From Thermoanaerobaculia bacterium (GTDB lineage: Bacteria; Acidobacteriota; Thermoanaerobaculia; Multivoradales; Multivoraceae), in assembly GCA_963664405.1 (NCBI GenBank), contig OY761158.1, positions 5,600,001-5,664,000 on the forward strand: a stretch of 64,000 bases of DNA. Direction: 5' to 3'. Positions 53,628 to 59,049 of this stretch are shown here, piece by piece. The position numbers were made by a program, and so were the translations under genes. Each line of letters opens with the position of its first letter. Position 1 is the stretch's first letter. The notes beneath the pieces were generated by a model. The model searched no databases, was not told where the DNA came from, and saw only the letters and a list, made by a program, of their open reading frames with translations.

Positions 53628-56600
53628 ATGGGGCAGAGCTTCTACGGGGACCACGGCCATCACGGCCACGACCATGATCACGGGGGTGGACATTCCCACG
53701 ATCACGACCACGGTCACAAGCATGCGCACGACGGCGGTCACGGCCATGACCACGGCGCCCCGGGCTGGGGATATGCGCTGTTCTGCGCCGCGACGGCGGG
53801 GCTGCTGGTTATCTATCTCGCGGGTTTTCTCACCTCGATCTTTGGTGTCGACCTGGCCCTCATCCTTGCCTTCGTAGCAGGCTATCCGCTGATCCGGCAC
53901 GCCATCTCGGACGTCCTTCGCGGCCATCTGTCGTCGCATCTCACGATTGCCATCGCTGCCGGCGCCGCGATCGCGATCGGTGAGTACTTCGCTGCGGCCG
54001 AAGTGATGTTCATCATGCTCATCGGAGAGGGGCTTGAGCATTACACCGTCCATCGGGCACGGCGGGCTATTGCGGGCTTCGTCGAGATGCAACCGGCGAT
54101 GGCTCGCGTCCGGCGGGATGGCGTGGAGGTGGAGGTCGATCCTGTCGAGGTGGCGGCTGGCGAGACTGTGGTGGTGCGGCCGGGAGAGACCGTGCCTGTG
54201 GATGGCAGCGTTCGGGTCGGCAGGTCGAGTGTCGACCAGAGCATGATCTCAGGGGAGCCGATCCCGGTCGAGAAGTCTCCGGGCGACCCGATCTATAGCG
54301 GCAGTGTCAATGAGTACGGCCTGCTCGAGATCGAAGCTGAGCGAGTGGGCTCGGATACGACTCTCGCCCGTATTGCGCGCATGATCGAAGAGGCTCAGGA
54401 GCGGCGGGCGCCGATCGTGCGCATGGCCGACCGCATGGCTCGCTTCTTTCTACCGGCGGTATTGGTGGCGAGTGGCGCGATCTACTTCTTCACCGGTGAG
54501 ATGCTTCGTACTGTCGCGGCCCTCATCGTCGCCTGTCCCTGCGCCCTTGTGTTGGCGACGCCGGCTGCAATGGCGGCTGCTATCGGGCGGCTCGGTCGGC
54601 AAGGCGTGCTGGTCAAAGGCGGCGAGATCATCGAGCGCCTTGCTGCCATCGACGTCGTCGCCTTCGACAAGACCGGAACCCTTACTGCCGGCCGCCCGGC
54701 TGTGAGTGCGGTGATGCCGGTACCCGGTGTCGACGAAGAAGAACTGCTGCGGCTCGCGGCCGGTGCAGAACAGTCATCCGAGCACCTGCTCGGCCGCGCG
54801 GTCGTCGACTCTGCCAAGGCTCGAGGTTTGGTGCTGCCGCCGTCCGAGGGCTTCGAGATGCGCCCCGGCATGGGCGTGACGGCGCTCGTCGAAGGCCGGG
54901 AGGTCGTGGTCGGCACTCGCAAGATGCTTGGTGATTCGCTAGCCGAAGGGGATTGGTTCGACGATGCGCTGGCCTCGGCTTCGTCGGGCGGTCAGACACC
55001 CGTGGCAGTTGCGGCCGATGGCCGCTTGCTCGGAGTTCTCGCCCTACGCGATCCGCTGCGCGATGAGGCCGCCGGAGCGATTGCTTCACTGCGTAACGAC
55101 GGCACCGGGCGCTTGCTCATGCTTACCGGCGACGAAGAGGCGACTGCCGAGTTCGTAGCTCAGGCGGCCGGTATTGATGAGGTTCACGCTCGTCTACTTC
55201 CGGAAGAGAAGGTCCGGCGTCTGCGAGCACTTCGGAGTGAGGGCTTGCGAGTTCTGATGGTCGGGGACGGCGTCAACGACGCGCCTTCGCTTGCCGCCGC
55301 CGACGTCGGACTGGCGATGGGACAGGGTGCGGCTGATCTCAGCGCTGAAGCTGCTCAGGTCGTATTCCTCAAGGATCGACTCGACCAGATCCCATTGCTG
55401 CTGCTCTACGCCAAGAAGACTCTGCTTCGCATCAAGGCGAGCATCCTGCTTTTCGCCTTCGGAGTGAACTTCGGCGCCGTCGGCTTCGCCGCGGCTGGGA
55501 TGCTGAGCCCCGCCTGGGCCGCGATCGTGCACCAGGGCTCCTCCCTGGCGGTGATCTTGAACTGCGTGAGGCTGTTGGTGGAAGGTCGCTCGGTAGAGAG
55601 CGAGCGCGCTGCGACGCCGCTCGCCAGGCTGGCGACGCGGGTTCGGCGTTTTCGTCATGAGATCGCGCGGAGTGGTGGAGAGCGACTGCGGGGGTGGCTG
55701 CGTCGGCGGGGAAGGGCGTTGGCGGTGTGGGGAGCGCGCCTGGCGCTACCGCTATGGATCCTCACCGGTTTCGTCATTATCGCGCCCCAAGAAGTGGGTG
55801 TGGAGCTGCGCTTCGGACGGCAAGCGGGGCAGATTCTTTCTCCAGGTCTCCATTGGCGCCTGCCTTGGCCGATGGCGAAAGTCTTGCGGGTCGAGGCCCG
55901 CCGAGTGCGCGCAGCCGAGGTGGGTTTTCGCTGGCAGGGCGAGTTGACGGAAGAAGATGTGGAGCCGGTCGCCTACGAGTGGAACACTCGTCATGACACC
56001 GGTCGTTATCGCCAGATCGTGGAAGAGAGCGTGATGCTCACCGGCGATGAGAACCTGGTCGAGGTCTACGGGGTGATCCACTACCAGATCGCCGACCCCG
56101 CGGCCTTTGTATTTCGTGCCAGAGATCCGGGCCAGCTGGTCCGTTTGAGCGCCGAGAGCACACTTCGTTGGACCGTTGCGCAGCGTCACCTCGACTCGGT
56201 ACTGACCAGCGAGCGCTATGCGATCGAAGAGGCTTGGAGCGAAGCCCTGGCGACGACTCTGGAGGGCTACGGAGTCGGCGTGGAGATCCTCTCAGCCCAT
56301 CTCATCGAGGTACATCCTCCGTTGGAAGTAGTCGAGGCCTTTCGTGAAGTCGCCAGTGCGCTCGAAGAGCGATCTCGTATCGTCAACGAGGCCGAGGGGT
56401 ACCAGCTCGAACAGATTCCCTTGGCGCGCGGCGAGGCCCAGATGCGCGCACTTTCGGCGCAGGGCTATCGCACCCGCAGGGTGGCACGCAGTCAAGGCGA
56501 GAGCCAGCGCTTCGTCGACCGCGCGCAGAGCTATCGAGTTTATCCGGAGGTCACGCGATCGCGGCTCTACCTCGAGGCTCTGGAAGAGATTCTGCCGGGT

Positions 56601-56720
56601 AGGAGGAAGCTGATTTCCGGTGGCGCCGGCGCGGGGCGAAGACGTTTTCTATTTGTCGAAGAGGGGGCGATTCCGCCGCCCGTGACCCTGGTCGAGCCCG
56701 ACCTGATGGAGCAACCATGA
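53628..56720 (+). CDS. His-rich P1B heavy-metal ATPase fused to C-terminal HflK/SPFH domain
   Basis: His-rich N-terminus, [25 protein letters not shown]; then TM, RFG...[39 protein letters not shown]. Confidence 0.88.
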
Positions 56721-57604: not shown

Positions 57605-58588
57605 ATGCCACGACTCGAGGCATTCAAGAACTTCCTCCGAGCGATGAGCGCTCCCGCGGGCGGCTCCTTGCCGAAGTGGCGGATTCTCTTCGGCTCGCTC
57701 GCCGTTCTCTGCGCGATTTGGGGGCTGTACTTCGTGCCTGCCGATCAGCAGGCAGTGGTGATGCGGCTGGGTCGGGTGGTGCGCACGCAGGTTACGCCCG
57801 GCGTGCACTGGACCTGGCCCCCTCCGGTCGGAAGAGTGGTCAAGTTCCGCGCCCGCGAGACTCGGCGTCTGACGGTGGGGTTCTCCGCCCCGGACCGAGC
57901 CCTCGGCAGGGACCCCGCTCCCAGCCTGACGCAGTTTCTGACCGGCGACCGCAACATCATCACGGTTCGTTTGGTGGCGCAATTCGCGGTCAAGGACGCG
58001 GTCTCGTTCCTCTTCGACTTCAGGGACGTCGACGAGCTGGTCCGGAGCACGGCCGAGACGGCGCTTTCAGCAGTGGTGACCCGTCGCGGCGTCGACAATC
58101 TGCTAACGACGGAGAAGGTTGCGGTTCAGCAAGACGTTCATCTTCTATGCCAGGAACTTCTCGACAGCTATGGGGCCGGTGTTTCGATCCTGGGCATGAG
58201 CCTCGAATCGATCAGTCCCCCCGAGCAGGTGCGTGAGGCTTTCAACGATGTCGCCAGTGCTCGCGAGGATCGCGATCGAATCGTGCGCGAGGCACAGAGT
58301 TATGCCAATGAGATCCTGCCTCTGGCGCGGGGCGAGGCGATCAGGGAGATGCGTGAGTCGGAGAGCTACAAAGAGAGTCTGACCCTGCGTGCGAGGGGCG
58401 ATGCTGCGCGTTTCAGCAGTCTCGCTCGAGAGTACGTGCGAGTGCCTGAGCTGACGGCGACGCGCCTGTACCTCGAGGCGATGGAGGAGGTCCTGCCACG
58501 GATGAAAAAGACCCTCGTCGAGGCCGGAACCAACAGCATCGACTTCGATTTCGTGCGGGCCTCACCCGCCTCGGGGGGAAGGCCCTGA
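57605..58588 (+). CDS. hflK: HflK-family SPFH protein
   Basis: TM, PGVHWTWPPP, FLTGDRNI, PPEQVREAFNDV, RLYLEAMEEVL. Confidence 0.88.
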   Translation: MPRLEAFKNFLRAMSAPAGGSLPKWRILFGSLAVLCAIWGLYFVPADQQAVVMRLGRVVRTQVTPGVHWTWPPPVGRVVKFRARETRRLTVGFSAPDRALGRDPAPSLTQFLTGDRNIITVRLVAQFAVKDAVSFLFDFRDVDELVRSTAETALSAVVTRRGVDNLLTTEKVAVQQDVHLLCQELLDSYGAGVSILGMSLESISPPEQVREAFNDVASAREDRDRIVREAQSYANEILPLARGEAIREMRESESYKESLTLRARGDAARFSSLAREYVRVPELTATRLYLEAMEEVLPRMKKTLVEAGTNSIDFDFVRASPASGGRP

Positions 58589-59049
58589 AGCGTCATCTGC
58601 CTACCCTGCTCACGATCGCCGTCGTACTCGTCGGGCTATGGTGGACCCAGACGCGGGAGTCGGCGCCGAGTGAAGAGAGTGAGCCGCAGGCGGTTGTGTG
58701 GCGCATGATCGACGAGTCGAAGGCGGCGGACATCGAGGGCTACCTGAGCTGCTTCAGCGGCGATCTTCGCGAGCGCCTGGAGGCGAATCTCCGCCAGATG
58801 GGTGAGGAGGGCTTTCGTGCCTACCTACGAGATCGTCTTGCGGAGCTCAAAGGAGTAGCGATCTACGACGTCGAAGAAAGCGACGCAGAGGCTTCGCTCA
58901 CGGTCGAGTACGTCTTCGCCGAGGAGAGCGAGCGCCAGAGTATGCGCCTGGAGAGGACCCGAGGCACCTGGCGCATCGCCGGAGCCGACGCCTCCCGCCG
59001 CGAGCGCTCCCTAATCCCTTACGGCACTCCCATCGAACAAGCCGAGTAG
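58585..59049 (+). CDS. Membrane-anchored small protein (NTF2/DUF4878-like)
   Basis: CTG at 58585 gives KRHLPTLLTIAVVLVGLWW TM; DIEGYLSCF...LERTRGTWRI pattern. Confidence 0.6.
   Translation: MKRHLPTLLTIAVVLVGLWWTQTRESAPSEESEPQAVVWRMIDESKAADIEGYLSCFSGDLRERLEANLRQMGEEGFRAYLRDRLAELKGVAIYDVEESDAEASLTVEYVFAEESERQSMRLERTRGTWRIAGADASRRERSLIPYGTPIEQAE

Follow-up and report, generated by a model that had tools for sequence, protein, structure and literature searches.

A heavy-metal P-type ATPase fused to an HflK-type protein and encoded beside a dedicated HflC, a free HflK and a small anchored protein: a candidate scaffold dedicated to metal exporters

To our knowledge, clients of bacterial HflK/C other than FtsH are hardly known, and the effect of SPFH proteins on their clients is an open question. 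Among eukaryotic SPFH proteins, stomatin domes are reportedly also described with gap junctions. In Escherichia coli, 24 subunits, HflK taking turns with HflC, enclose FtsH hexamers (PMC12048511), stomatin domes enclose AQP1 and UT-B (PMC12407830), and in Mycobacterium tuberculosis P1B ATPases depend on small membrane scaffolds that are encoded adjacent to them, clustering in membrane domains as PacL-Ctp 'effluxosomes' (PMC13460109). Here we describe a locus in a 64,000-nucleotide stretch of the genome of a Thermoanaerobaculia bacterium (assembly GCA_963664405.1, contig OY761158.1, positions 5,600,001 to 5,664,000 of the forward strand; hereafter the window, with position 1 as its first letter). 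A P1B-type heavy-metal ATPase is fused there to an HflK-type protein (HflK', or K') and is followed, on the same strand, by genes for an HflC paralogue (HflC', C'), a free second HflK (HflK'', K'') and a small protein with a transmembrane (TM) anchor (S). Pump::HflK fusions accompanied by such partners occur across hundreds of bacterial species and suggest a scaffold or cage dedicated to exporters.

The fusion gene occupies positions 53628-56720 on the plus strand and is a single open reading frame (ORF) of 1030 amino acids (aa) with an ATG start and no internal stop in its translation. Pfam recovered E1-E2_ATPase (residues 153-324), Hydrolase (341-559) and Band_7 (717-924) in this one protein. 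The NCBIfam model TIGR01525 (ATPase-IB_hvy) matched residues 105-649 with 563 bits (cut-off 346), and the hflK model TIGR01933 matched residues 715-996 with 207.8 bits (cut-off 159.4). The motifs SGEP, CPC, DKTGT and GDGVND were located at residues 208-211, 303-305, 347-351 and 546-551, respectively. Both DKTGT and GDGVND are invariant in 45 out of 45 aligned relatives and identify the protein as a P-type ATPase, while the A-domain motif, TGE in most relatives, is SGE in this protein, and its G209 and E210 do not vary. Assignment to the P1B type was based on the TIGR01525 score, on CPC as the CPx motif of M4 and on 8 TM helices in an AlphaFold2 (AF2) model of the fusion monomer, which was built from an alignment of 45 relatives (mean pLDDT 79, pTM 0.56).

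The protein begins with a His-rich tail (residues 1-44; 53628-53759) that is disordered in the AF2 model, with 16 His in the first 80 aa. The ATPase core follows (residues 45-651; 53760-55580), in which family models, alignments and the AF2 model, with its 8 TM helices and A, P and N domains, agree on helices MA, MB and M1-M6, including the CPC of M4, Asn614 of M5 and HQGSS of M6. The next segment is an Arg-rich, partly helical and probably cytoplasmic linker (residues 652-683; 55581-55676; helix at 664-682 in the model), and after it comes the single TM helix of HflK' (residues 684-712; 55677-55763). The remainder (55764-56720) is the predicted periplasmic part of HflK', with an SPFH domain (715-896), a coiled coil (903-988) and two C-terminal strands within 993-1010 in the AF2 model; in a search against solved structures it matched the HflK of PDB 7vhp with an E-value of 2.6e-35. 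Its SPFH domain carries a clade-specific YEWNxxHxxGR insert with invariant Glu and His, which is conserved in K' fused to ATPases and to CDF transporters and is weak or absent in ArsP_1 fusions (see below). The C-terminus of a P1B pump is cytoplasmic, and HflK starts in the cytoplasm, crosses the membrane once and faces the periplasm. In 134 fused proteins the linker from M6 to the start of the SPFH domain measures 50-89 aa (median 77) and is net basic, which fits a cytoplasmic location. The first-pass annotation, made from the letters alone, had described the uninterrupted ORF with its four motifs, the Arg-rich linker and a TM helix near 55720, had proposed a Pfam check for E1-E2_ATPase and Band_7 in one protein, and had argued that the topologies of the two halves fit; we located all of these features, and both domain order and the basic linker support the topology.

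We judge it next to impossible that two separate genes were joined artificially, through mis-assembly, an overlooked stop or a frameshift. Logan contigs from four runs of four studies (assembled contigs rather than raw reads) each span positions 53500-59100 unbroken (one of them, X10, to 59070). Two of the four match the window letter for letter and are possibly its source; 61 and 71 substitutions separate the other two from it, without any insertion or deletion inside the fused ORF, and the sole insertion lies behind 59052, past the stop of S. A pattern scan with one genome per species gave 403 confirmed loci, and we examined the best 80 of these, picked from species-representative genomes by likeness to the fused K'. 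The two parts lie in one open frame in all 71 loci with enough upstream sequence, the other nine of the 80 having none. Residues 660-1030, used as query against proteins of 566-1803 aa, retrieved 114 proteins, of which 103 contain E1-E2_ATPase, Hydrolase and Band_7 and four more are N-terminally cut versions; the 103 span 33-97% identity. With the ATPase part alone as query, Band_7 was present in 110 of the best 120 relatives, and the remaining 10 were mostly contig-end fragments, truncated proteins or proteins with out-of-frame-looking tails. Those few tails speak for an artefact, as does one locus (L037, G393:C1:1962076-1965876) whose fused gene shifts frame between the TM helix and the SPFH part, be it as a pseudogene, through a sequencing error or after a recent fission; the indel-free contigs, the 71 open loci and the divergence of the fused proteins speak against it. 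The same genome, G393, had initially yielded a candidate unfused relative (391-aa frame), which was rejected on inspection as a frameshifted fusion. Judging from these sequences, the fusion appears near-obligate.

The downstream genes are closely packed. The hflC' gene (56717-57601, plus strand, 294 aa) overlaps the stop of the fusion gene by 4 nt (ATGA) and scored 198.5 bits with TIGR01932 (cut-off 134.4), and hflK'' (57605-58588, plus strand, 327 aa) follows after a 3-nt gap with 213.1 bits for TIGR01933 (cut-off 159.4). A coiled coil and C-terminal strands are suggested for K'' and C' by the coverage of the family models and were seen directly, in the AF2 model, for K' alone. Downstream sequence of 3 kb or more was available for 73 loci; hflC' was present in 72 of them, hflC' followed by hflK'' in 71, and S in addition in 63, and 4-nt overlaps between the module genes are frequent. 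The overlapping hflC and the free hflK after a 3-nt gap had been correctly read in the first-pass annotation, and so had a small TM protein behind them, provided that S starts at CTG 58585 (see below). Its guess that similar clusters exist under generic names also held: we found them as 'Cu+-exporting ATPase', 'HflK protein', 'FtsH protease activity modulator HflK' and 'cation-translocating P-type ATPase family protein'. The third of these names is probably misleading on fusion proteins of ~1000 aa.

The module proteins are paralogues of the canonical pair. At 4.11 Mb the same genome encodes a canonical hflK-hflC pair (hflK 281 bits), and its sole FtsH-family match above the cut-off lies at C1:3008014-3009753 (3.01 Mb), ~2.6 Mb from the operon; as already read from the letters, no ftsH occurs within the window. 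We built two quick, unrooted IQ-TREE phylogenies (91 and 75 rows, SH-aLRT support only) from a chosen subset that included many kin; the first tree drew on 21 of the 80 loci and the second on 13, and the module of the window was part of each. The ATPase-fused K' formed a clade with a support of 98, K'' a clade with 100 and then 93, and C' a clade with 97 and then 99. All three were apart from E. coli HflK and HflC, from the canonical pair of the genome and from other canonical pairs, so the module copies are paralogues distinct from that pair. K' and K'' thus pass the cut-off of the HflK model and yet fall outside the clade of canonical FtsH-linked HflK; likewise, C' exceeds the TIGR01932 cut-off and adjoins both hflK genes, yet belongs to a module-specific clade. 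Branching within K', K'' and C' was congruent, as expected if the three were inherited together. In the printed alignment, an Arg aligned with R193 of E. coli HflK is found in all canonical HflK and in most K' and is absent from 22 out of 22 K''. PMC12048511 gives Arg191 of HflK as the FtsH contact; in the E. coli K-12 sequence, residues 185 and 193 are Arg and residue 191 is not, and it is uncertain that the R193 equivalent is the published contact. Two further genomes (G042 and G007, loci L039 on G042:C9 and L040 on G007:C33) carry an hflK-hflC pair that belongs neither to the canonical nor to the module clades and forms one of its own (support 100), and these genomes also encode an ArsP_1::HflK module.

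We also found the HflK' type fused to two other kinds of transporter: to ArsP_1 permeases, assigned by NCBIfam to the SO_0444-family of Cu/Zn efflux proteins (NF033936; 358 and 353 bits, cut-off 300), and to CDF (Cation_efflux) transporters. Genes for hflC' and then hflK'' lay downstream of these fusions in all five loci examined, with 4-nt gene overlaps in two and larger overlaps in three. Their C' fell in the same clade as C' of the ATPase modules (99), and their K'' grouped with K'' of the ATPase modules (94). In the opposite direction, 40 out of 40 long relatives (574-2000 aa) of the free HflK were fused to a metal transporter: 28 to an ATPase, 9 to ArsP_1 and 3 to CDF. Three unrelated exporter families have thus been recruited to the same module, which links it to metal export generally and not to P-type ATPases in particular. 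The sequences fit a single ancestral K'-C'-K'' module that swapped its transporter, an order of events that an unrooted quick tree does not prove.

Some further fusions deserve mention. The best equivalog models for the CDF parts of L130 and P0121 were those of magnetosome MamB/MamM, at 49-80 bits and far below the cut-off of 350. P0118 and P0119 (~650 aa) combine an N-terminal multi-TM domain without a Pfam family with a distant Band_7 and may be a further membrane protein::SPFH fusion. One CDF::HflK fusion (P0122) is labelled Candidatus Altiarchaeota archaeon, where a binning error or a gene transfer is possible; a 2009 survey of SPFH proteins in prokaryotes states that archaea lack the HflK/C subfamily (PMC2636767).

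By record title, the 80 loci came mostly from Acidobacteriota lineages, with 8 from metagenome-assembled genomes (MAGs) of Armatimonadota type (Fervidibacter and Abditibacteriales, which we take to belong to Armatimonadota). Lone records were MAGs labelled Clostridia, Gammaproteobacteria and Acidimicrobiia and one Nevskia soli, labels that may be binning errors; other source labels were Planctomycetota, Gemmataceae and Holophagales. Two near-identical modules labelled Gammaproteobacteria and Nevskia soli (L066 and L125) were nested among Bryobacterales-type sequences, which suggests mis-binned contigs or a recent transfer. In 401 sampled genomes of the phylum of the window, an HflK' match in an open frame of at least 1000 aa was present in 21 (its own genome included) and, frameshifted, in one more; this tally takes in two unpublished genomes (G152 and G049), both with a canonical-like match only.

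We consider the pump a candidate exporter of divalent-metal type, as its sequence suggests. Its best solved relative over the whole pump was the P1B-4 ATPase sCoaT (PDB 7qbz; E-value 4.1e-100), tied with CopA structures, and ZntA was more distant (1.4e-86). With CopA structures scoring as well as 7qbz, more than one subgroup and metal would fit the pump, and both TIGR01512 (Cd type, 468 bits) and TIGR01511 (Cu type, 413 bits) exceeded their cut-offs. Like sCoaT, the pump has no HMA domain according to Pfam and has a His-rich tail, and its M6 motif HQGSS aligns with HEGST. It differs from sCoaT in having CPC opposite SPC in M4 and Gln in place of the Glu of HEG. The signature of P1B-4 (Co/Zn/Cd type) is presumably SPC in M4 and HEGxT in M6. 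Across the 103 fused proteins M4 reads ACPCA, the Asn of M5 is invariant and M6 reads AAxVHQxxSLxVxLNxxRLL, while the His-rich tail is confined to the closest relatives (0-16 His among the relatives compared). A second P1B ATPase, unfused, is encoded at 1.45 Mb in the same genome.

The last gene of the module, S (58585-59049, plus strand), encodes an NTF2-like domain behind an N-terminal TM anchor. The ORF as listed (58696-59049) lacks a TM helix, and the same frame is open upstream, where it encodes a basic stretch and a TM helix; no ATG, GTG or TTG precedes 58696 in this frame, and CTG 58585 overlaps the TGA of hflK'' in the manner of the ATGA and GTGA overlaps of relatives. Either a CTG start or a recent change of the start codon would account for this. 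In all 64 homologues of S a basic stretch and a TM helix come first, and a variable linker then leads to a domain of ~115 aa. A model of the domain (pLDDT 91.7) showed the alpha+beta cone of the NTF2 fold, and Foldseek matched it in PDB to SgcJ, the NTF2 domain of RsgI9, AtzH and ketosteroid-isomerase-like proteins (E-values 2.6e-5 to 1e-3, probability 1.0, TM-score 0.4-0.5). No Pfam family was found in S of the window or in its homologue P0120, and Protein Atlas returned hypothetical Acidobacteriota clusters only, plus weak DUF4864/DUF4878 leads. The residues that do not vary in S are P, G, E, Q and W; Cys is not conserved, and a conserved Cys/His/Met cluster is absent. From its anchor, S would be periplasmic. 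A prediction of the K''+C'+S complex (34-row alignments, S as partner, run without controls) scored 0.29, short of the mark of 0.32, and is no evidence on binding in either direction. Behind hflC in E. coli lies yjeT (4387-4584 in L126), which encodes a small membrane protein of the DUF2065 family and takes the position that S has in the module; position alone was compared.

Around the window operon lie genes for ligA, Ldh/Mdh, a BamB-like protein, GlnA and a fatty-acid desaturase. The ligA-like ORF (53542-53629, minus strand), as listed, begins 2 nt inside the start-codon region of the fusion gene, and a later Met at residue 30 (MKRRDLSH...) looks like its true start, leaving ~85 nt of divergent intergenic DNA. 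Clustering the flanking ORFs of the 80 loci gave no family common to more than 17 of them; the three largest clusters (17, 11 and 8 loci) comprised, respectively, proteins without a family, outer-membrane beta-barrels with CarboxypepD_reg, and DUF3604-like proteins. We found no metal regulator gene or metal riboswitch beside the operon, an Rfam scan of 53000-59700 returned only a chance miRNA match (E-value 0.52), and a promoter and terminator scan gave nothing useful upstream. With no widely shared flanking family and no metal regulator or riboswitch at its side, the four genes form a self-contained unit.

The explanation that we favour, and hold to be probable if only narrowly so, is a dedicated HflK/C-type assembly built around metal exporters, in which the pump is tethered to its own SPFH scaffold. 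The cytoplasmic C-terminus of the pump is covalently joined to the N-terminal TM helix of K', and, if E. coli HflK/C is a guide, K' and K'' would take turns with C' in an SPFH ring or dome that covers a patch of inner membrane and faces the periplasm; ring assembly, the position of the pump inside, stoichiometry and physiological role are what we infer here. This would keep the pump permanently tethered, as a client, to an SPFH microdomain of its own, with the basic linker of 50-89 aa keeping its TM bundle beside the K' anchor. Free K'' most likely occupies HflK positions without a pump, so that the bulky pumps would be spaced round the ring. Such an assembly might organise, stabilise or insulate exporters, and possibly also the metal released into the periplasm, and would act apart from the housekeeping HflKC-FtsH complex; candidate effects are stabilising or spacing the exporters, setting their lipid surroundings, keeping them from FtsH or bringing them to it, and confining exported metal. 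As simple arithmetic on the figures of PMC12048511, and not as a result, six pumps would bring 48 TM helices, as many as four FtsH hexamers at two helices per subunit. A bolder version, which we think has a slim prospect of being right, makes K'-C'-K''-S a general machine for caging exporters that captured at least three unrelated efflux families, its pump-bearing K' and pump-free K'' alternating with C' in a periplasmic dome and forming a membrane-bounded nano-compartment that steers exported metal. The first-pass annotation had proposed a pump built into its own HflK/C cage, with the free HflK restricting how many pumps a cage holds and, more boldly, a metal-collecting compartment in the periplasm; the fusion, topology, operon, conservation and paralogy stand, and the wider pattern with ArsP_1 and CDF exporters is not part of it.

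Several observations weigh against this explanation. The relative orientation of pump and SPFH domain is unreliable at the pTM of 0.56 of the monomer model, and two close relatives of the ATPase (P0210 and P0214) stop just past M6 and may be truly unfused. Independent support is smaller than the counts suggest, many of the 80 loci being closely related (Bryobacterales), and, the loci having been picked by likeness to fused K', the frequency of unfused forms is not measurable there. Moreover, K' exceeds the equivalog cut-off for HflK and most K' carry the R193-equivalent Arg, which makes a link to FtsH possible. On this last point rests the strongest rival, by which the HflK' fusion and its partners would join or mimic the FtsH-HflKC complex and deliver exporters to FtsH or shield them from its proteolysis, setting pump levels after metal stress. 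HflK- and HflC-like model scores for K', K'' and C' and the Arg that all K'' lack, its identity with the published contact being uncertain, are what make it so; in addition, one FtsH is encoded in the genome and FtsH is the known partner of HflK/C (PMC12048511). Yet ftsH never forms part of the module, given that no flanking family recurs in more than 17 of the 80 loci, and lies 2.6 Mb away in the genome of the window; a canonical hflKC pair is kept beside the module, the module proteins sit in clades apart from it, and a covalent protease-adaptor tether would be an odd control for three different exporter families. We therefore regard an FtsH adaptor as unlikely, though to be taken seriously.

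Two other readings keep the scaffold apart from FtsH and appear to us still less probable, to a similar degree. If the exporter discharged into the volume of the dome, metal could be kept from periplasmic targets or handed to S or other acceptors; a module shared by three unrelated metal-ion exporters, the invariant Glu and His of the YEWNxxHxxGR insert in ATPase- and CDF-fused K', and a TM-anchored NTF2-like protein, periplasmic as judged by its anchor, in 63 out of 73 loci are consistent with such a periplasmic metal-handling compartment. The lack of a conserved Cys/His/Met cluster in S and the weak or absent insert in ArsP_1 fusions do not agree with it, SPFH walls would have to retain ions, and no outer-membrane or chaperone partner is conserved nearby in the 80 loci. 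Alternatively, SPFH arcs or small oligomers might insert or stabilise the pump or set its lipids, as an open scaffold or chaperone that resembles PacL and encloses nothing. P1B ATPases do need dedicated scaffolds in effluxosomes (PMC13460109), and the E. coli HflK/C assembly, in its native form, is open and asymmetric too (PMC12048511); against this, the long coiled coil and the C-terminal strands, which close the dome in E. coli, are kept, in K' by model and in K'' and C' by family-model coverage. The dedicated assembly tethered to its exporter remains the reading under which we compare the module with described systems.

We found no description of a transporter-HflK or transporter-SPFH fusion in the full-text literature (with subscription journals and supplements outside the scope of the search). 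The words 'ATPase', 'fused', 'heavy metal' and 'transporter' are absent from the 2009 survey (PMC2636767), and SPFH, flotillin and HflK from the effluxosome review (PMC13460109). The module would offer a natural system in which the identity of the client, the stoichiometry of K' and K'' and the position of the pump could be read by cryo-EM and the function as metal tolerance. It also suggests that exporters of Acidobacteriota, Armatimonadota and Planctomycetota work in dedicated membrane domains, parallel to the unrelated PacL effluxosomes.

The module shares with E. coli HflK/C-FtsH the adjacent hflK and hflC genes, the order of N-terminal TM helix, periplasmic SPFH domain, coiled coil and C-terminal strands, and a membrane client, which is presumed here from genes alone. 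Unlike in E. coli, the presumed client is a metal exporter fused to one HflK, two HflK paralogues in separate clades accompany each HflC (K'-C'-K''), ftsH is unlinked, and a gene for a TM-anchored NTF2-like protein is added. With stomatin domes it would have in common an SPFH oligomer whose clients are transporters or channels; stomatin, however, is eukaryotic, cytoplasm-facing and homo-oligomeric and holds its clients non-covalently, whereas the module is bacterial and probably periplasm-facing and hetero-oligomeric, with a fused client. As in PacL effluxosomes, scaffold genes stand beside a P1B metal ATPase, but PacL is a DUF1490 protein, neither SPFH nor fused to the pump, and Pfam found no DUF1490 in the four operon proteins, only ATPase and Band_7 families. 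Relative to these SPFH-client and scaffolded-pump systems, the fused client, the two HflK per HflC, the NTF2-like subunit and the use of three exporter families set the module apart, and evolution appears to have fixed the client by fusion to its scaffold across three unrelated families of exporters.

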